Positions 2,177 to 62,120 of a stretch of 64,000 nt of DNA are shown piece by piece. Both the position numbers and the translations under genes were made by a program. Source of the stretch: a virus. How positions within the stretch are numbered: position 1 is the stretch's first letter; each line of letters begins with the position of its first letter. The notes under the pieces are model-generated. The model was given only the letters and a program-made list of their open reading frames with translations. It was not told where the DNA came from and did not search any database. The DNA lies in IMG/VR virus record IMGVR_UViG_3300009182_000050, positions 8,172 through 72,171 of that record. The stretch is one strand, 5' to 3'.

Positions 2177-3460
2177 ATGATGAATACGGAAAAGACAAAT
2201 ACTTGTATTGCTTGTGGTAAATCTAATATAGAAAAAATTCTTGATTTAGGTCATCAAGTACCAGCAAATAACTTGCTTGAAGATAGAGATGACAAAGACT
2301 ACACACTCTATCCTTTAGGTATTAATGCTTGCTCGGACTGTAGCCACGGTCAGTTATCATATTTTGTTGAACCAGCAAAGATGTTTAAGCAATACTCTTA
2401 TGTAAGTTCAACAAGTCAGACTATGAAATCTCATATGGAAAAACTTGCAAACTTTGTGTTAAATCTAAAAGGTAATGCAGTTTCAGTACTAGAGATTGGC
2501 TCTAATGATGGATTGTTTCTTAAGTCTCTAAAAGATGCTGGTATTACAAATATTTGTGGTGTAGACCCAGCAGAGAACATTGCATCTAAAGCAAATGAAG
2601 AAGGTCTTACAACAATTGTTGGTTTCTGGCCTGAAGTATCAGATGAGTTTTCATCTTTTGCATTTGATATTGTGATTGGTCAAAATGTGTTTGCTCACAC
2701 GCCAAACCCATACGAGGCTCTAAAAGAAATTAAACGAGTTCTTACTCAAGATGGTTTTGCAGTATTTCAAACATCACAGGCAGATATGATTGCCAATGGT
2801 GAATTTGATACTATCTACCACGAGCATTACTCATTTTTCTGTGAAGCATCTATGGCTGCTCTTGCAGAACGCGTAGGTCTTCAACTTGTCTACACACACT
2901 ATGTAGATATCCACGGTGGGTCATCATTGTATGTTCTTACACACGATTACCTAGACCCTGACATTGTTTCTATTGAGTTATCAGCTATCTCATCTGGACT
3001 TATAAATGTTGAGGCTAGAGACGATAGAACTGCTCGCGTTCGTAAATACCGGACTGAAGAAGACTGGGAAAAATTTGAAAAGTCTTCTATAGATACAAGT
3101 GTTGGTGCTCTAAAAGTAGTTGAAGAGTGGCTTGATAAAGATAAAAGAATTGTTGCTGTAGGTGCAGCAGCCAAAGCAATAACTTTTTTGCGTGCTGCTC
3201 AAATACCGATTGATGCACTACTTGATGAATCCCCATTAAAACTAGGTAAGTGGGTAGCCGGTCTTGATACTCAAATTACAGATTTTAAGAATGTAACTGA
3301 TTCTGACGCATACATAATTGGTGCTTGGAATTTTGCTAAAGAGATTGCAGCAAAACTACTACATGCTGGAGCAGACCACGCTGCACCTTGTATGGTTTAT
3401 TTCCCTGAAGGAGTTACAACAACTCTTGGATATCTAGCTCTTAATGGTTTAGATAATTAA
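2177..3460 (+). CDS. NDP-hexose C-methyltransferase (zinc-binding N-terminus, SAM domain, C-terminal domain)
   Basis: CIACG...LDLG...PANN...CSDC, LEIGSNDG, GVDPA, NVFAH, FDTIYHEHYSFF, HGGS, GAAAKA. Confidence 0.85.
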   Translation: MMNTEKTNTCIACGKSNIEKILDLGHQVPANNLLEDRDDKDYTLYPLGINACSDCSHGQLSYFVEPAKMFKQYSYVSSTSQTMKSHMEKLANFVLNLKGNAVSVLEIGSNDGLFLKSLKDAGITNICGVDPAENIASKANEEGLTTIVGFWPEVSDEFSSFAFDIVIGQNVFAHTPNPYEALKEIKRVLTQDGFAVFQTSQADMIANGEFDTIYHEHYSFFCEASMAALAERVGLQLVYTHYVDIHGGSSLYVLTHDYLDPDIVSIELSAISSGLINVEARDDRTARVRKYRTEEDWEKFEKSSIDTSVGALKVVEEWLDKDKRIVAVGAAAKAITFLRAAQIPIDALLDESPLKLGKWVAGLDTQITDFKNVTDSDAYIIGAWNFAKEIAAKLLHAGADHAAPCMVYFPEGVTTTLGYLALNGLDN

Positions 3461-4152
3461 TGACAAATGTTGAAAACTTTGAAAATTTTTATAAAAAAGT
3501 CTCTATTGATTCAAGAATATCATATAAAGATTTTTACAAACTAAGAATTCTTAATCAAATAAATTATTCTGATTTATATAAAGATGTTCGTATTCTCAAA
3601 TTTCCTGAGGACTTGCGTACATATGAACGTCTTATTGATGACTCTAAGCCAGAGGTAATTATTGAACTTGGTGTTGAGGCTGGAGGTTCTAGTTTATGGT
3701 TTGCTGACCGCCTAGATGCTTTATGTGGAGGTGGTGAAGTTATTGCAGTTGATATTGATATCTCTCAAGTACAGCAGCCAGTTCTTGATGATAAAAGAAT
3801 TACTCTTATAGAAGGTGATATTTCCTCACCTGAAGTAGTTAATAAAGTCAAGAAATTAGTCTCTAATCGTAGAGTAATGATAATTGAAGATGCTGCTCAT
3901 ACATATGATTGCACACTTTCTGCACTTCAAAATTACTGGGATTTAGTACCTGTAGATGGTTGGTTTATAGTTGAAGATGGGATAGTAGATATTGAATATT
4001 TAAGATTCCATCATAAACTTCCTCGTGGTGTTATTAGTGCATTAGACTATTTTTGTAGTTCACCTGCTGGTAAAAAGTTCTCAAGAAACTCTTTGGCTCC
4101 GTATGGAATTACTTCAAATCCTACTGGATGGCTTCAAAGGAAGTCTGAATAA
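3460..4152 (+). CDS. CmcI-family (cephalosporin hydroxylase / rhamnosyl O-methyltransferase-like) protein
   Basis: KFPEDL, KPEVIIELGVEAGGS, VIAVDID, IIEDAAH, IVEDG, TSNPTGWL. Confidence 0.85.
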   Translation: MTNVENFENFYKKVSIDSRISYKDFYKLRILNQINYSDLYKDVRILKFPEDLRTYERLIDDSKPEVIIELGVEAGGSSLWFADRLDALCGGGEVIAVDIDISQVQQPVLDDKRITLIEGDISSPEVVNKVKKLVSNRRVMIIEDAAHTYDCTLSALQNYWDLVPVDGWFIVEDGIVDIEYLRFHHKLPRGVISALDYFCSSPAGKKFSRNSLAPYGITSNPTGWLQRKSE

Positions 4153-4194
4153 AGATGTATACTTATAAAAACGCATACGCTATGACTTTAAGGA

Positions 4195-6534: not shown

Positions 6535-6989
6535 TGAGTAAATATGTTTTGTCCGTAGACCCTGGTAAAGCAACTGGAGTTGCTTTAGTTAGTTTTGAAA
6601 AAGGCTCTGAGCCAGAAATTATCTATTCTGGTGAAGTTCAGCCAGATGAGTTTGCCATAGTTGTCAGAGATTTAATGACTAACTATCAAATAAAAGAGAT
6701 AGTGTGTGAAAAGTTTACAATAAATGCTCAAACTGTTAGAAATTCTCAGGCTCCGTACTCTTTAGAGCAAATTGGGGTTCTAAAACAGATTATGCAGGAC
6801 TTTGAGTTTGATAGAGAGTCAATTATCTGGCAATTACCTGTTGATGCTAAGAAAATGTTTCCAAATGAAGCTCTTAAAACCTTAAAATTATGGCATAAAG
6901 GTGGAGAAGGGCACGCAAATGATGCTCTGAGGCACGCTTTACTACGACTTGTTAAGACTGGCTGGATACCTAGACAACTTCTACAATAA
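6534..6989 (+). CDS. RuvC-like Holliday junction resolvase
   Basis: SVDPGKATG, VCEKF, HANDALRH RNase H-fold motifs; overlaps polymerase stop. Confidence 0.75.
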   Translation: MSKYVLSVDPGKATGVALVSFEKGSEPEIIYSGEVQPDEFAIVVRDLMTNYQIKEIVCEKFTINAQTVRNSQAPYSLEQIGVLKQIMQDFEFDRESIIWQLPVDAKKMFPNEALKTLKLWHKGGEGHANDALRHALLRLVKTGWIPRQLLQ

Positions 6990-7074
6990 AAGATACTATT
7001 TGAAAAAACTTGTACTAATTAAAATGTGTGATAGTATCTTTGCACAGACGAAATGACATAGAAGAGAGAAGTAA

Positions 7075-8880
7075 ATGGCTGTAATAGCAAAGCTGGACTT
7101 AGACGGTATTCATATCCGTTTAGATGTTGAGTATCGTTACAAAGAATTATGTAAAAGCATCCCTGGCTCTGCTTGGTCTACTGCTGACCAAGTGTGGCGT
7201 TTACCACTAAGCTGGTCTACTTGTTTAGCACTTCGCTCAACATTTAGAGATGACCTTGTGATTTCTGAAGACCTTTCTGAATGGGCTATGAATCAACTTA
7301 CAACTCGTATTGCTCCAGCAAATGAACTACGAGATTTAGAAGAATTTATTGACTCAAATAATGAAGATTTGTTTCCTCATCAGCGTGCTGGTGTAAAATT
7401 TTTAGCAACTGCAAAGCGTGCTTTACTTGCTGATGAACCAGGTCTTGGTAAGACTGCTCAGGCTATCCGTGCACTTAAGGAACTTCAAGAACAGGGTGAA
7501 GATGTATTTCCTGCTCTTATTGTTTGTCCAAATACTTTGAAAAAGAACTGGGCTCGTGAGTTTGGTCGCTGGTGGCCTAGTGTTACCTGTCAAGTTATTA
7601 AGGGTACATCTACACAGCGTCGTAAGCAGTTTGATACTCAGGCAGATGTATATGTAATCAACTGGGAATCACTTCGTACTCACTCACGACTTGCTCCTTA
7701 CGGTTCTGTTGCTCTTGCACGTTGCACAGAGTGTGGTGGGCACGATAGCAAGGTAACTTTAACTAGGTGTGAAGTTCACAAGCGTGAACTCAACGGTATT
7801 GATTTTAAGTCTGTAGTAGCGGATGAAATTCATCGCTCTAAGGACCCTAAATCAAAGCAGACTCGTGCTTTGTGGTCAGCAACTGGAAATGCAAAGATTC
7901 GTTTTGCTCTTACAGGAACTCCTGTAGCCAACAATGTGGTTGATATGTGGTCTATTCTTCACTGGCTTTCTCCAGAGGATTGGCCATCAAAGACAAAATG
8001 GATTGACCGGATGGTTGACACTATGCTTAATGCTTTTGGTGGTCTTATGGTTCTTGGTGTAAAGCCTCATATGGAAGAAGAGTTCCAAAAAACAATCAGT
8101 CACCATATGCGTCGTATGCTCAAGGCTCGTGTACTTCCTTGGTTGCCTCCGGTAATCAATGAGCGTCGTGATATTGAAATGTCTACAAAACAGAAAAAAG
8201 CTTACGAGCAGATGCGTGACCATATGATTGCAGAACTAGAGTCTGGAGATGCATTATCTGCTCCTAGCGTTTTGACTCAGACTATTCGTCTACTTCAATT
8301 TGCTAGTTCATATGCAGATATTGTTGTTGACGAAAAGACTGGTGAACCACGAGCAGTTTTGTCAGAGCCTTCTTGTAAGGTTGACTCACTTATGGACGAT
8401 ATTAAAAATGGTGACTTTGGAGACGACTCTGTAGCCGTCTGTGCTGTGTCACGTCAGTTGATTGAACTTCTAAGTGCTGCTCTTACAAAGGCTGGAATCT
8501 CTCACGGTTTAATCACCGGTGCTCAGTCTGAAGAAGAGCGTCAAGATGCTATTGATGATTTTCAATCTGGTGTAAATAAGTGGATTCTTTTCACTGCTCA
8601 GGCTGGTGGTGTTGGTGTAACTCTTACAGCAGCTCGCCGTTTGATTATGCTCCAGCGTCCGTGGTCACTTGTTGACCATAAGCAAGCCCTTGACCGCGTA
8701 CATCGTATTGGTTCAGAGATTCACGATTCTGTCATCATTAGCGACTATGTTACAGAAGGAACTATTGAAGAACGAGTTCTTCAAGTTCTAGAAACCAAGG
8801 CTGATAACTTTGAGCAAATCGTTCACGACCGTGTGAGATTACTTGATTTGCTAAAAGAAGATAAAGCAGGTAAGTTGTGA
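7075..8880 (+). CDS. SNF2/SF2 DNA helicase
   Basis: LFPHQ, DEPGLGKT, DEIH, LTGTP, GGVGVTL, QALDRVHRIG. Confidence 0.92.
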   Translation: MAVIAKLDLDGIHIRLDVEYRYKELCKSIPGSAWSTADQVWRLPLSWSTCLALRSTFRDDLVISEDLSEWAMNQLTTRIAPANELRDLEEFIDSNNEDLFPHQRAGVKFLATAKRALLADEPGLGKTAQAIRALKELQEQGEDVFPALIVCPNTLKKNWAREFGRWWPSVTCQVIKGTSTQRRKQFDTQADVYVINWESLRTHSRLAPYGSVALARCTECGGHDSKVTLTRCEVHKRELNGIDFKSVVADEIHRSKDPKSKQTRALWSATGNAKIRFALTGTPVANNVVDMWSILHWLSPEDWPSKTKWIDRMVDTMLNAFGGLMVLGVKPHMEEEFQKTISHHMRRMLKARVLPWLPPVINERRDIEMSTKQKKAYEQMRDHMIAELESGDALSAPSVLTQTIRLLQFASSYADIVVDEKTGEPRAVLSEPSCKVDSLMDDIKNGDFGDDSVAVCAVSRQLIELLSAALTKAGISHGLITGAQSEEERQDAIDDFQSGVNKWILFTAQAGGVGVTLTAARRLIMLQRPWSLVDHKQALDRVHRIGSEIHDSVIISDYVTEGTIEERVLQVLETKADNFEQIVHDRVRLLDLLKEDKAGKL

Positions 8881-39883: not shown

Positions 39884-40264
39884 ATGTATGATACAAAATT
39901 CCTGACGGCCGTCGCTGAACGAGCTATCAAGACATTTGCACAGACTCTCTTAGCAACCATCGGAGCTGATTCTGCTGGCGTGCTAGATGCAACAACCGTA
40001 GATGCAGCCAAAGTTGCTGCAGGTGCGACCCTTCTCTCAATCTTGACCAGTTTCGCTTCTAGCGCAACCGGTCGCTCAGGTCCATCACTTGCCAGCGAAA
40101 CAACCGACCCGGATGTGGAATTTATTCTTCCAACTCCTGTAACGGCATCAACGGCCTCTAAGACCACAACCAATGCGGCCAGCACAAAGGCAACCGTAAA
40201 GGTTACTCCTGCTAAGAATCCAACGGCCAAGAAGAAGCCAGCGGCTAAGAAAACTGAGCAATAG
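39884..40264 (+). CDS. r1t-type holin
   Basis: AERAIKTFAQTLLA...ATLLSILTSFAS...GPSL. Confidence 0.85.
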   Translation: MYDTKFLTAVAERAIKTFAQTLLATIGADSAGVLDATTVDAAKVAAGATLLSILTSFASSATGRSGPSLASETTDPDVEFILPTPVTASTASKTTTNAASTKATVKVTPAKNPTAKKKPAAKKTEQ

Positions 40265-58317: not shown

Positions 58318-58878
58318 ATGACAACGATTGTTGGGATACAAGGAGATGGGTTTGCCGTTATTGGCTACGACTCTCGCGTATCCGGAGAAAACGGTCGTAT
58401 TTATGTTTTGCCAAAAGACACCGGCAAGGTTGTGCGGAACGGAAATTATCTTTTAGGAGCAGCTGGGGACTTACGAGCGATAAATCTTCTGGCCGACATT
58501 GAGCTGCCGGACCCAGAAGAACTCGTGGGAAAAAAATTAGATAAGTTCTTCTCCACCCAGGTCGTGCCGCGCATCCGGACGCACTTTGAGCGACATGGTT
58601 ACGGTCGTGATGGTAGCCAGAGTTCTGACATCTTGGTGTGTATCTCTGGAATTATCTATGAAATCGCAGAAAACTATGACTGGAACAGGGATGCGTTTGG
58701 CATCTACGGTGTAGGAAGTGGTTCTGATTACGCAGTTGGAGCATTACATACATTAGTTGATGGCGACATAACAGTTGATGCGGCTAAGCTTTGGATTAAA
58801 GCTGCGATGAAGATTGCGCTGCGGCTTGACTCCGGAAGCGGCAACCCGGTAAACATTGTCGTCCAGCAGAACAGCTAA
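58318..58878 (+). CDS. Proteasome beta/HslV-like Ntn-hydrolase
   Basis: N-terminal MTTIVG (Thr nucleophile), DSR, GAAG, GSGSDYA.GAL, D..SG. Confidence 0.82.
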   Translation: MTTIVGIQGDGFAVIGYDSRVSGENGRIYVLPKDTGKVVRNGNYLLGAAGDLRAINLLADIELPDPEELVGKKLDKFFSTQVVPRIRTHFERHGYGRDGSQSSDILVCISGIIYEIAENYDWNRDAFGIYGVGSGSDYAVGALHTLVDGDITVDAAKLWIKAAMKIALRLDSGSGNPVNIVVQQNS

Positions 58879-58944
58879 TAATTTTTTTCCTACTTCCGGG
58901 CGCGGCGACTTGACATCCCGGACAAAGCTGCTAAGCTTGTCTGC

Positions 58945-59697
58945 ATGGGAACATTTGTATCTTTATTTGCCGGAGTAGGTGGCTTTGACCTCGGTCTTGA
59001 GTCTGGAGGACACACTTGTGTCGGTCAGGTTGAGATTGACCCGAAGTGCCTTGCGGTATTGGAAAAGCATTGGCCAGATGTGTCAAAGCATAATGATGTA
59101 GTAACAGCAAAGGAATGGGCTAATGAGCAAAACATCATCGGAAAAGTTGACATTGTCTGCGGAGGATTTCCGTGCCAAGACGTTAGCGTTGCAGGAAAAA
59201 GGGCTGGACTGGCTGGCGCAAGGACTGGACTATTCTTTGATGCACTCTCTTTCGCAACGCACGTCAAAGCAAAAACTCTCATCTTGGAGAATGTCCCAGG
59301 ACTTTTATCAAGCAACAACGGACGCGATTTCGGAGTCGTCCTCACTAGTCTGGCCGACGCAGGGTATAGCGACATCCAATGGCGTGTTCTTGATTCGCAA
59401 TTCTTCGGAGTCCCCCAACGCCGTCGTCGAGTCTTCATTGTCGCAAGTACTCCAGACGGAAGTTTCCCCGAAGTACTCTTTGAGCGCGAAAGCCTCGGAG
59501 GGAATCATCCGGAGAGCGGAACGCAGGGGCAAGACTCTACCGGAAGCACTGAAGAACGCGCTGCAAGCAGTGGTGGACGCGGCGAAGACCAGCGAGTAGG
59601 AAACTTTGAACTCTGGACTTTTCCAGAAGAAGCAGTAACACCAGCGTTATCAGCTCGTCGTTCCGGTGACATGCTGAACTACCAGCAGCCTGAGTAG
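58945..59697 (+). CDS. C5 cytosine DNA methyltransferase catalytic chain (motifs I-VIII only)
   Basis: SLFAGVGG (I), GGFPCQD (IV), ENVPG (VI), QRRRRVF (VIII); motifs IX and X absent. Confidence 0.92.
   Translation: MGTFVSLFAGVGGFDLGLESGGHTCVGQVEIDPKCLAVLEKHWPDVSKHNDVVTAKEWANEQNIIGKVDIVCGGFPCQDVSVAGKRAGLAGARTGLFFDALSFATHVKAKTLILENVPGLLSSNNGRDFGVVLTSLADAGYSDIQWRVLDSQFFGVPQRRRRVFIVASTPDGSFPEVLFERESLGGNHPESGTQGQDSTGSTEERAASSGGRGEDQRVGNFELWTFPEEAVTPALSARRSGDMLNYQQPE
59123..59599 (+). CDS. Nested +1-frame protein resembling the M.EcoHK31I beta chain N-terminal region
   Basis: AAGGA RBS; ...SSESPNAVVESSLSQVLQTEVSPKYSLSAKASEGIIRRAERRGKTLP... Confidence 0.65.
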   Translation: MSKTSSEKLTLSAEDFRAKTLALQEKGLDWLAQGLDYSLMHSLSQRTSKQKLSSWRMSQDFYQATTDAISESSSLVWPTQGIATSNGVFLIRNSSESPNAVVESSLSQVLQTEVSPKYSLSAKASEGIIRRAERRGKTLPEALKNALQAVVDAAKTSE

Positions 59698-59703
59698 GAA
59701 AAA

Positions 59704-60528
59704 ATGTTAAGCTGGTTCGTGAAGACGATTCGGTCTGGTGCGCGAGCTGCTGATGGAAGCCTTCCAGCTGATGTTTGGACTGAAGGAGTTGTTCATCCAA
59801 CTCTGAACTTGTTTGATGTTGGAGATACAAGGGCGGTTACATTGGTAATTCACTGGAAGCCGATTGACGAAGGGGTCGTTGGACCTTTAACAACTGGGAT
59901 GGATTCACCACGCGGTTCTGAAACATCTGACTCAAAGCATCTTGTGATTGGAGAAGAAGTGCCGACATACCCTATTGACACTCGTAATGCTCTTCGTGAC
60001 CCAGATAAGAAAGATGCGATGAACAGGCAAGGTCTTGGTGTTGGAGAAGATGGTGACCCATCACCAACATTGACAAGTCTTTTCGTACCAGCAGTAATTT
60101 CTACGGAGGAAGCAGAAGTGAGTAGCGTATTTCCCATCCAGAACACAGTGATTGGTCGTAAGGACACAGCCGGACCTCAGGGTCGTGGGCACGGAGATGC
60201 GGATGGACCGATGTTCACTCTTGACACCGGGGGAGGTCACGCAGTGGCCGTAGCTGAAGAGGAAAAAAATTTGGAACCAGCGGCTTACGATGAGTTTAAT
60301 GATTCAATTTCCCCGGTACATCACACGCTGCGTGCCGGAACAAAGCAGTCAACTGGGGTTTTTGCCAGCGTAGTTCGCCGGCTCACCCCGGTAGAGTGCG
60401 AGCGGCTACAAGGATTTCCAGATGACTGGACAATGGCTGATGCCAAAACAGTTGATTCGCATCGTTACAAGCAGATGGGTAATGCGGTTACAGTAAATGT
60501 GATTGGGTGGATTGGCTCTCGCCTCTGA
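59704..60528 (+). CDS. C5 MTase C-terminal chain 1 (several TRD-like segments + motifs IX/X)
   Basis: HPTL, PSPTL, MFTL, HHTL segments; RRLTPVECERLQGFPDDWT; RYKQMGNAV. Confidence 0.88.
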   Translation: MLSWFVKTIRSGARAADGSLPADVWTEGVVHPTLNLFDVGDTRAVTLVIHWKPIDEGVVGPLTTGMDSPRGSETSDSKHLVIGEEVPTYPIDTRNALRDPDKKDAMNRQGLGVGEDGDPSPTLTSLFVPAVISTEEAEVSSVFPIQNTVIGRKDTAGPQGRGHGDADGPMFTLDTGGGHAVAVAEEEKNLEPAAYDEFNDSISPVHHTLRAGTKQSTGVFASVVRRLTPVECERLQGFPDDWTMADAKTVDSHRYKQMGNAVTVNVIGWIGSRL

Positions 60529-60776
60529 TGGAGAAGCCTTTCCCCACCATCATTGCTGGGTTGTCGCATCGCGGAGGAACGACTCAGGATGCTTATGTCT
60601 TTGCTCTCATAGATGCTCTTGACCAAGTACGCCGTGTCACTCCTCCTGAGTGCGAGAAGTTACAAGGATTTCCTGAAGGCTGGACTGACCAACACTCAGA
60701 TACAACTCGCTACCATCAGATTGGTAATGCGGTAACAGTAAATGTCAGCAGTTGGATTGGTAGAAGGCTCAGATGA
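60528..60776 (+). CDS. C5 MTase C-terminal chain 2
   Basis: TGATG overlap; RRVTPPECEKLQGFPEGWT; RYHQIGNAV. Confidence 0.85.
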   Translation: MEKPFPTIIAGLSHRGGTTQDAYVFALIDALDQVRRVTPPECEKLQGFPEGWTDQHSDTTRYHQIGNAVTVNVSSWIGRRLR

Positions 60777-61036
60777 TTGTCAAATACCCTGAAGAGGTAG
60801 TAGGAACTATTACCACAGCCTTCGGTGCGAAGAACTACTCAAACCACCAAGAACTGATGGAAGGGAGCGTTGTTGTGTTAGAGAACGATGTTCGTCGTTT
60901 GTCACCGGAGGAGTGTGAACTCCTACAAGGATTTCCTTCTGGCTGGACTTGGATAAGTGCAGACGAGCCTCGGTACAAACAAATGGGCAATGCGGTAACA
61001 GTTAATGTTATTAAATGGATTGGTGGAAGATTATGA
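60773..61036 (+). CDS. C5 MTase C-terminal chain 3
   Basis: ATGA overlap; RRLSPEECELLQGFPSGWT; RYKQMGNAV. Confidence 0.85.
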   Translation: MIVKYPEEVVGTITTAFGAKNYSNHQELMEGSVVVLENDVRRLSPEECELLQGFPSGWTWISADEPRYKQMGNAVTVNVIKWIGGRL

Positions 61037-61308
61037 TTCTTTACGACGCAACACGAAATGAAGACCATCGTGAATACCACGACCTTTCTCCAACAGCCAC
61101 GGCTCGCTGGGGCACCGGGGGAAACAATGTTCCGTTCCTGGTTGATGCCGGAACAGCTCGCCGCCTGAGCCCGGAGGAAGTTGAGCTGCTCCAGGGGTTC
61201 CCGGTTGGTTGGACAGCTCCAGCAGCAGTATCTACCCGGTACAAACAGCTCGGAAACGCAGTTACGGTCAATGTAATTGGTTGGATTGCTGGAAAAATTG
61301 ATGTCTGA
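61033..61308 (+). CDS. C5 MTase C-terminal chain 4
   Basis: ATGA overlap; SPTATARWGTGGNNVP; RRLSPEEVELLQGFPVGWT; RYKQLGNAV. Confidence 0.85.
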   Translation: MILYDATRNEDHREYHDLSPTATARWGTGGNNVPFLVDAGTARRLSPEEVELLQGFPVGWTAPAAVSTRYKQLGNAVTVNVIGWIAGKIDV

Positions 61309-61783
61309 GGAAGAAATAATAGCGTTTAGTCACACTCAGGGGCTAGATTGTCAGCCATCTAACGAAAACTTTCCAACTTTGCGTTCCGGAGGCGGCGGAC
61401 ATGCGGTGATGGTAGCAGCTCCGATTCAGGATGGTAGAGAGATGGAAAAAAACCAGAACGGCCTTGGCGTAGCATCACCGGGCTCACCAAGTTACACGCT
61501 GGATTCAACCGGAGCACAGGCAGTTGCTACTTGGTGGGACGGCGGCCAAATCAGCCAGACGCTTGATGCCGTGCTTGCTAAAGGTCAAACTATGCCAGAT
61601 AAGAATCGTTTCCCTGCGGTGATTCAAGAAAGCAGGGTTCGCCGGCTGACACCAATTGAAGCGGAGCGTCTTCAGGGATTCCCCGATAACTGGACAGACC
61701 TACACGCTGATACAAACAGGTACAAGCAAATGGGTAATGCCGTGACAGTTGATGTCGTGGCTTGGATTGCGTCACGCCTCTAA
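61301..61783 (+). CDS. C5 MTase C-terminal chain 5 (three TRD-like segments)
   Basis: FPTL, SYTL, SQTL segments; RRLTPIEAERLQGFPDNWT; RYKQMGNAV. Confidence 0.87.
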   Translation: MSEEEIIAFSHTQGLDCQPSNENFPTLRSGGGGHAVMVAAPIQDGREMEKNQNGLGVASPGSPSYTLDSTGAQAVATWWDGGQISQTLDAVLAKGQTMPDKNRFPAVIQESRVRRLTPIEAERLQGFPDNWTDLHADTNRYKQMGNAVTVDVVAWIASRL

Positions 61784-61829
61784 ACAAGAAAGCCCCACCC
61801 TTTCGGGTGAGGCTCACTTGGGGATTTAT

Positions 61830-62120
61830 TTATTCGTCTTCGTCATCTTCTTCAGGAGCATCTGAACAAGTTACGCGAGTCCAATAAACGATTGTGTCGT
61901 AGCCCATTGAATCGGTTCGGCTATTGCTGAGTAGTTCCTTGCGGAGTTCTTCGTCCTCAACCGTCTCAGCGATTGCTGCGCCAAGTTCTAGCAGGTCACT
62001 AGCAACGATTCCTACGCAAACATTGCCGTACATTCCGCGACCTGAGTAATCAGCGCGAGCATCGCCATTAACTTCCTGAGCGATTTCTTCTAGCAGGTCT
62101 AGTGAGATTGTGTATGTCAT
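61830..62120 (-). CDS. Hypothetical phage protein
   Basis: YSGRGMYG..C.G and DSMG...IVYW motifs; AAGGGAGA RBS on minus strand. Confidence 0.75.
   Translation of the reverse strand: MTYTISLDLLEEIAQEVNGDARADYSGRGMYGNVCVGIVASDLLELGAAIAETVEDEELRKELLSNSRTDSMGYDTIVYWTRVTCSDAPEEDDEDE

Follow-up and report, generated by a model that had tools for sequence, protein, structure and literature searches.

A freshwater phage operon with one catalytic chain and five alternative tail chains: a probable multi-chain, multispecific DNA cytosine-5 methyltransferase

In a 64,000-nucleotide (nt) stretch of phage DNA, positions 8,172 to 72,171 of the IMG/VR virus record IMGVR_UViG_3300009182_000050 (hereafter, the whole stretch is called the window), we find an operon of six chains in which a single catalytic chain of a DNA cytosine-5 (C5) methyltransferase, alpha, is followed by five beta chains, or tails, each of which ends in the two sequence motifs that alpha lacks. 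We consider it likely, though well short of certain, that the operon encodes a multi-chain, multispecific C5 methyltransferase in which one alpha works with five alternative betas, and that it serves the phage against host restriction. That every chain is translated, that each assembles with the one alpha, that the resulting specificities are distinct and that the role is anti-restriction is what we infer from the data laid out below. The window comprises the last 64 kb of the 72,171-base record, for which CheckV gives a completeness of 54%, and its PHROG matches, which include DNA polymerase, helicase, primase, ribonucleotide reductase and the large terminase subunit, are those of a phage. 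The carrier of the operon is a freshwater phage.

The alpha gene (58945–59697, plus strand) encodes 250 amino acids (aa) and ends in TAG. It holds C5 methyltransferase motifs I–VIII, followed by a low-complexity linker and by a tail module, a0, which resembles a target-recognition domain (TRD). The chain matches positions 2–164 of the 324 positions of PF00145 (E-value 1.3e-49) as well as TIGR00675 (4.7e-49), and it aligns to M.HhaI 14–174. The large-domain motifs I, IV (PCQ), VI (ENV) and VIII (QxRxR) are present and motifs IX and X are absent, just as an initial annotation, made from the sequence alone, had read this open reading frame (ORF). The same annotation had seen motifs IX–X in each of five following ORFs, which is borne out as well, since all five beta chains match only the C-terminal end of PF00145, at positions ~253–322, i.e. 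motifs IX–X. All lie on the plus strand. Chain 1 (59704–60528, 274 aa; PF00145 259–320, E-value 5e-14) carries five modules, 1A–1E, ahead of IX–X. Chain 2 (60528–60776, 82 aa; 2e-11), chain 3 (60773–61036, 87 aa; 1e-13) and chain 4 (61033–61308, 91 aa; 5e-12) carry one each, namely 2A, 3A and 4A. Chain 5 (61301–61783, 160 aa; 5e-15), which ends in TAA, carries three (5A–5C), and its residues 110–158 align to M.HhaI 268–316. Over the whole 72-kb record, the N-terminal part with motifs I–VIII is matched only once, as opposed to five matches for the C-terminal part with IX–X.

Instead of the usual form, with ten motifs in one polypeptide, there is a stop after alpha both here and in all 12 viral loci (65–100% identity) that a scan of IMG/VR with the alpha chain returned. 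In these loci the alpha ORF ends at 244–253 aa, by TAG in eight, TAA in three and TGA in one, and chain 1 follows either in frame, a short spacer away, or in a different frame with an overlap. In the window itself, alpha and chain 1 are in the same frame across one TAG with a 6-nt spacer, which the initial annotation had correctly noted, adding the caveat that readthrough or a recent nonsense change might be at work. This caveat fails. In locus L007, whose alpha is identical, one additional A in the spacer puts alpha and chain 1 out of frame, and the same additional A is found in contigs of the public runs X5 and X7. Because stops and frames differ among loci, extra-A variants occur and ARAGORN finds no transfer RNA (tRNA) gene over the window, the in-frame TAG is incidental. 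Recoding of the TAG was considered and rejected, given that the split is kept with other stops and frames and that the window holds no tRNA gene. A GG-A-run leader motif was also sought at the spacer between alpha and chain 1, and the junction does not match it.

The split extends beyond the 12 viral loci. A scan of metagenomes gave 15 further loci, eight of them split-type arrays (L021–L025, L027, L030 and L033), three unsplit enzymes with 51–69% identity (L026, L029 and L031) and four uninformative (L028, L032, L034 and L035). Among the 120 nearest alpha homologues in a set of 5.8 billion proteins, 107 have motifs IV and VIII and no motif IX in the same chain (184–315 aa, some of them possibly cut by contig ends), while 13 are unsplit. 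We therefore hold it to be very improbable that the layout is an accident, with a recent nonsense change, TAG readthrough or recoding splitting a normal gene and the extra tails being leftovers. The shared frame in the window and the three unsplit relatives are what one would cite for it; they stand against 12 of 12 viral loci split by three different stops and in different frames or overlaps, against the out-of-frame spacers of L007 and the contigs of two runs, against the lack of a tRNA gene in the window and against the 107 homologues without motif IX.

Between the beta chains, the genes overlap. In order, the four overlaps read TGATG, ATGA, ATGA and ATGTCTGA, so that the ATG of chain 2 overlaps the TGA of chain 1, chain 3 has an ATGA overlap at both ends, and the ATG of chain 5 falls within chain 4, 8 nt from its end; the coupling of the last four ORFs described in the initial annotation thus holds. 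In the 11 loci whose beta-to-beta junctions we read, all junctions are stop/start overlaps, of the forms ATGA, GTGA, TTGA, TGATG, TAGTG or NTGnnTGA. Such overlaps with varied codons bear the signature of translational coupling. One could alternatively imagine ribosomal frameshifts at the overlaps, which would yield one long protein with several IX–X repeats, and an offset of −1 is indeed seen in three of the window's four overlaps. Yet these are common stop/start couplings, of more than one type, in which an ATG, GTG or TTG start is kept, and no conserved slippery site was seen on reading the junctions by eye, without a formal search. Moreover, gene callers give the chain 2 orthologues as free proteins of 81–97 aa, and there is no known fold for a protein with several motif X helices. 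Frameshifting is hence a highly unlikely explanation. Just upstream of the next start, the codons for the conserved W-I-G-x-R-L at the tail ends (60745–60776 and 61009–61036) include stretches rich in GGA/GGT, and they may serve the following cassette as its ribosome-binding site as well.

The tails appear to be maintained. We estimated the ratio of non-synonymous to synonymous substitution rates (dN/dS) by pairwise Nei-Gojobori comparison between orthologues, in pairs of our choosing and with dS often above 1.5. For chain 1, dN/dS is 0.10–0.17 (three of five pairs measurable, the rest saturated), for chain 2 0.045–0.22 (four of five pairs), for chain 4 0.047–0.12 (three of three) and for chain 5 0.067–0.27 (four of six). 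Chain 3 differs from its L007 copy by three synonymous and no non-synonymous changes, and from the fused copies in L014 and L016 by a dN of 0.21 with dS saturated. All tail chains are thus under purifying selection, and chains 2–5, for which the initial annotation had proposed such a measurement, do not look like decaying genes. Within the window, the five IX–X cores share 65–82% protein identity and 62–75% DNA identity, with longest identical runs of 8–14 bases, and the proportion of synonymous differences (pS, 0.51–0.91) far exceeds that of non-synonymous ones (pN, 0.11–0.28). Since protein identity exceeds DNA identity and pS is much larger than pN, the cores are old paralogues kept at the protein level, neither fresh duplicates nor decaying remains. 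Chain 2 provides a further view of this conservation. Its orthologues form 11 clusters, called as free genes, of 81–97 aa and 67–99% identity, and in the alignment of 12 sequences module residues 5–28 are almost invariant, beyond even motifs IX–X.

In their parts before motif IX, relatives differ by whole blocks, and we cut modules where they do. This yields twelve modules of 33–52 residues on six chains, i.e. a0 on the alpha tail, 1A–1E, 2A, 3A, 4A and 5A–5C. By our own reading, each consists of a P-T-L-like turn, then a glycine-rich stretch and then a hydrophobic strand. The blocks appear as clean insertions and deletions (indels) in the alignment of ten chain 1 sequences. Short TRD-like modules stand in tandem between motifs VIII and IX in chain 1 (five) and chain 5 (three), with boundaries at natural indels, and the count of 5, 1, 1, 1 and 3 modules in the initial annotation agrees with the positions of these indels in the relatives. 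The N-terminal modules bear no relation to each other, but every one of them is conserved among its orthologues.

Modules also come and go, and change chains. Module 1C is present in the window and in L033 and is missing from L007 and L021, whose alpha chains are 100% and 97% identical to that of the window, while 1B occurs only in the window, L007 and L021. Module 3A, which has its own chain in the window, is fused to 5B–5C in seven loci (L014–L017, L024, L027 and L033), and 5A has its own IX–X chain in L012 and L013; 5A-like modules also occur inside single chains. The single beta chain of L018 contains a 4A-like module and, by our reading, so do the unsplit enzymes P0195, P0197 and P0199 and an extra chain of L036, a locus to which we return below. 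Likewise by our reading, the alpha tail of P0218 carries a 5C-like module.

These observations bear on the possibility that the tails are real but redundant, adding the same or no specificity and serving for dosage or as spares, with N-terminal segments that are structural rather than target-reading. The IX–X cores are indeed alike (65–82% protein identity), and module searches allow no specificity to be assigned. Against redundancy, however, the modules are mutually unrelated and each is conserved among orthologues, with 2A exceeding its own IX–X part in conservation; they are swapped as units between chains; and the saturated synonymous sites between the paralogues argue against a recent duplication for dosage. 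Redundancy is thus, in our view, an unlikely reading.

The number of tails varies from one to five among relatives, and also within natural populations, which answers the question of cassette number that the initial annotation had raised alongside that of the split. One tail is found in seven loci (L008, L009, L010, L018, L022, L023 and L025, of which L008 and L025, whose contigs are equally long, may be one sequence filed twice), two in one (L011), three in six (L014–L017, L024 and L027), four in two (L021 and L033) and five in the window, L007, L012 and L013. Cassette 3 is missing from L021, whose alpha is 97% identical. In runs X5 and X7, which belong to two studies, one contig each joins position 60752 to 61016, skipping 263 bases with 9 letters shared at the joint. 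By our reading, the two sides meet in the codons that directly follow motif X in chains 2 and 3, and both the frame and the ATGA start of chain 4 are kept. The deletion removes exactly cassette 3, as in L021, and contigs of runs X1 and X4 retain it. Because the joint sits at 9 shared letters after motif X, cassettes are gained or lost by recombination between conserved repeat ends, among otherwise near-identical phages. The site of this 9-nt joint coincides with the W-I-G-x-R-L codons described above. A different kind of insertion is seen in L012, where an unrelated ORF of 85 codons (3919–4176; same place in L013) lies inside the tail array, stop/start-coupled on both sides and, by our reading, with two Cys-x-x-Cys-like pairs.

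To place these arrays in context, we drew a broader set of 80 IMG/VR loci by the IX–X consensus. Unsplit enzymes account for 37 loci, a separate IX–X ORF together with one motif IV ORF for 26, and a tail only for 15; of the remaining two, one lacks IX–X by the pattern used and the other, L036, has two IX–X copies. Two-chain enzymes are thus common in this clade. When chain 2 was searched against deposited phages, 49 records matched and none had more than one matching place.

Can a short tail complete alpha? We addressed this by co-folding alpha with chain 2, the sole tail tested, with alignments of 42 rows for alpha and 12 rows for chain 2 and with three controls. The pair scores 0.86, as compared to 0.00 for the best of the controls; the mark applied is reached by 58 of 80 solved complexes and by 2 of 110 mismatched pairs, counts that apply only approximately given the use of our own alignments. 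At least 73% of contacts are common to the runs, and the pLDDT (predicted local distance difference test) of the partner is at least 75. On the alpha side, the predicted interface comprises residues 10–23, 70–74, 111–115 and 149–166, the spans of motifs I, IV, VI and VIII, and on the chain 2 side residues 44–48 and 60–82, the spans of motifs IX and X, while residues 4–8 of the chain 2 module touch alpha 174–178. Chain 2 is accordingly predicted to close alpha in the canonical way, as in solved single-chain enzymes. Of the co-folds that the initial annotation had envisaged for each pair, the one with chain 2 passed and supports binding, though the pass may reflect solved single-chain enzymes.

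The alpha gene holds a second conserved frame. An overprinted ORF in the +1 frame (59123–59599, plus strand, 158 aa) lies inside it, with a layout like that of the M.EcoHK31I beta chain but no motif IX. The initial annotation had not made it part of its finding. In the window and the 12 viral loci, the +1 frame is open over 156–167 codons in 13 of 13 sequences, whereas the remaining frame reaches 35–73; it is also open, always at +1, in unsplit relatives, in gp127 of Mycobacterium phage Omega and in ydiP of virus Rctr41k. Beyond motif VIII, conservation is higher in the +1 frame than in the alpha frame in all 11 comparisons (0.86 versus 0.45 with L008 and 0.48 versus 0.28 with Omega, for instance), and the motif IV–VIII part of the +1 frame is free of stops in all 11. 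Compared with the tails, alpha shows a low dS (0.21–0.69) and a raised dN/dS (0.23–0.53), and double coding may explain both.

The overprinted protein matches phrog_16143 (E-value 2e-11) and 3230 cluster representatives among 1.84 billion at E-values up to 1e-3 (603 at 1e-10), and by tblastn it matches 189 deposited phage records; under the best 40 of these 189 matches, the features are annotated as methyltransferase or hypothetical protein or are unannotated. It has no match in Pfam or NCBIfam. Some homologues extend across a stretch rich in Ser, Thr and Pro as far as an in-frame motif IX, after which they end, while the protein of the window ends before any motif IX. Its predicted fold is confident only in the last ~50 residues (mean pLDDT 65.9, predicted template modelling score 0.36), and Foldseek finds no match to this model in the PDB at E-values up to 0.001. 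Because the beta chain of M.EcoHK31I is needed for activity, the overprinted protein is probably a further subunit of the enzyme.

Taken together, these data suggest the following mechanism. Alpha would provide the binding site for S-adenosylmethionine and the catalytic cysteine loop (motifs I–VIII), and the five beta chains would be translated from one transcript by translational coupling. Each beta would bring one to five short target-recognition modules together with motifs IX–X, which would close the catalytic domain, the motif X helix packing on motif I, with one beta chain per alpha molecule. An infected cell would then contain a mixture of holoenzymes that methylate many sequences and so keep host restriction enzymes from cutting the phage DNA. 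New cassettes, consisting of a module and IX–X, would be gained or lost via recombination at the conserved IX–X repeat ends, and the overprinted protein is probably also part of the enzyme. A bolder version of this idea, to which we give somewhat less than an even chance, is a plug-and-play methyltransferase in which one core, probably together with the overprinted chain, takes any adaptor and addresses up to twelve targets, reshuffled in wild populations by recombination after motif X. Each module of ~35–50 residues would then set its own target, and we put forward just as tentatively that the whole would be an arms-race organ against host restriction, with a logic like that of an hsdS shufflon and with co-expressed subunits.

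Several points weigh against a multi-chain enzyme with five alternative specificities. First, the folding model may owe its pass to having memorized solved single-chain C5 methyltransferases, M.HhaI for instance; as such, the pass shows likeness and not that this copy binds. Second, when the module parts of chains 1 and 5 were compared by tblastn with 50,697 deposited phage records, no match appeared at E-values up to 1e-3, so that the modules have no assignable specificity and their targets are only putatively distinct. Third, chains 2–4 are without module 1A, which is present in 10 of 10 aligned chain 1 sequences and is the only module seen in an unsplit relative of 309 aa; because of this absence, chains 2–4 might build an incomplete small domain. 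Fourth, arrays of at least two tails are rare outside the close relatives of the window, with one among the 80 sampled IMG/VR loci. This one is L036, in which an unsplit multi-module enzyme of 461 aa and an ATGA-coupled tail of 91 aa, with one module and IX–X, together occupy 2259–3919. A tail can hence exist without a free alpha, either displacing the built-in IX–X or in another role, and the simple one-core model does not explain this layout. Fifth, in L017, which otherwise resembles L014 and L015, chain 1 (6722–7279) is without the motif X core owing to an in-frame deletion, which either shows that single tail copies decay or is an assembly variant. Finally, five tails would have to compete for one core.

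The layout of L036, a complete enzyme with a coupled extra tail, and the lack of module 1A in the short chains are also the grounds for another view, namely that the short tails do not complete alpha and act instead as competitive regulators of the alpha–chain 1 enzyme or as add-on subunits of a complete one. We give this view little credence. The co-fold predicts, with high confidence, chain 2 at the canonical IX–X position on alpha; the residues of IX and X are intact in the tails and under selection; and a conserved, chain-specific module would be superfluous for an inhibitor. Altogether, we continue to favor a multi-chain enzyme in which one alpha pairs with alternative betas.

Each element of this arrangement has precedents. 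M.AquI from Agmenellum quadruplicatum is a natural two-chain C5 enzyme split in the variable region, with the smaller chain comprising the rest of the variable region and motifs IX–X, and complementation in cells is known for fragments of M.BspRI, M.BsuRI, M.HhaI and M.SssI (PMC3404938). The split position is the same in our phage, with alpha holding I–VIII plus some of the variable region and beta the rest and IX–X. In contrast, M.AquI is described with one beta and one specificity, whereas the phage has five betas (one to five in relatives) and an overprinted gene. In Bacillus phage enzymes (M.SPRI, M.Phi3TI, M.H2I and others), several TRDs stand in tandem between motifs VIII and IX of one polypeptide, which is taken as protection against many restriction systems (PMC12707154, PMC8936443). 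Chains 1 and 5 resemble them in stacking five and three TRD-like modules, respectively; however, the Bacillus phage enzymes as presented there are single polypeptides with one IX–X, while here six chains share twelve modules and there are five IX–X copies. M.EcoHK31I is an alpha/beta enzyme whose beta chain is encoded in another frame inside alpha, runs to motif IX and is needed for activity (PMC2836561, PMC3404938). Compared by published layout, and not by sequence, it shares with our case a conserved gene in another frame inside alpha, and some homologues of the overprinted protein end after motif IX like the published beta. It differs in that the overprinted chain of the window stops before IX, and in that IX and X are on separate downstream chains, with alpha lacking X, which the M.EcoHK31I alpha has together with the TRD.

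Among phages, Mycobacterium phage Omega (NC_004688.1) has the catalytic half and the IX–X half as adjacent genes, gp127 and gp128, both annotated as DNA methyltransferase. Omega resembles the window in having the two halves as neighboring genes and the same +1-frame ORF in gp127, but it has a single tail gene. In logic, though not in enzyme class, type I restriction–modification systems are also similar. These systems methylate adenine at N6 as M2S1 complexes and possess alternative hsdS specificity genes, whose variants are usually switched by inversion. A constant catalytic subunit combined with exchangeable specificity subunits that recombine at conserved repeats is common to both, whereas inversion switching contrasts with the co-expression by coupling that we propose here.

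Two-chain C5 enzymes, phage enzymes with multiple TRDs and the dual-frame M.EcoHK31I have thus all been published, and a literature search, covering mainly titles and the openings of abstracts, returned no paper describing an array of alternative IX–X chains. What is new is the combination of several alternative tails, co-expressed by coupling, with one core and with cassette turnover. The present case contributes the largest array observed here, with five tails and twelve modules, the full range from one to five tails in one clade, and direct evidence of cassette loss in natural populations. If our reading is true, the textbook monomeric C5 methyltransferase can also take the form of a combinatorial multi-subunit enzyme, and phage counter-defence against restriction could evolve by adding or dropping cassettes of 250 bp, a turnover seen between near-identical phages of lake metagenomes. 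Modules of 30–50 residues with a generic IX–X adaptor would suit studies of how C5 methyltransferases read DNA. They could also serve the engineering of split, targetable methyltransferases, which have so far been pursued with artificially cut enzymes (PMC3404938, PMC2836561). Standard annotation under-reports such systems, as it labels tails 'hypothetical' or as methylase fragments and misses the overprinted gene altogether.

As to the boundaries of the operon, our own reading of the sequence suggests a weak promoter-like site (TTGACA, 16 nt, TAAGCT; 58910–58937, plus strand) 7 nt upstream of the alpha ATG. A promoter consensus scan calls none before alpha, and the −10 hexamer TAAGCT fits at only three of six positions, so that the site is a lead only. 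At the other end, directly 3′ of chain 5, a hairpin at 61790–61823 was found among terminator-like sites on both strands. We read it as a two-way terminator closing the operon, with a convergent gene (61830–62120) opposite; the total of five terminator-like sites in the scanned region is not above expectation, the mean for shuffled sequence being 3.8.

A DNA search of the region against deposited phages gave only short matches, covering 4–13% of the query and centered on motif VIII, and therefore points to no close cultured relative. Similarly, a scan of genome contigs with the alpha chain found no relative and thus offers no prophage-based clue to the host. Just upstream of the operon, a gene on the plus strand (58318–58878) encodes a 186-aa proteasome/HslV-like protein (PF00227, E-value 2e-08). 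The base composition of the window changes along its length, with a guanine-plus-cytosine content of ~0.36–0.43 in positions 1–40000, where the replication, ribonucleotide reductase and terminase genes lie, versus 0.46–0.51 in positions 40000–64000. The latter arm contains many small genes together with the methyltransferase operon, and phage genes are present in both arms.

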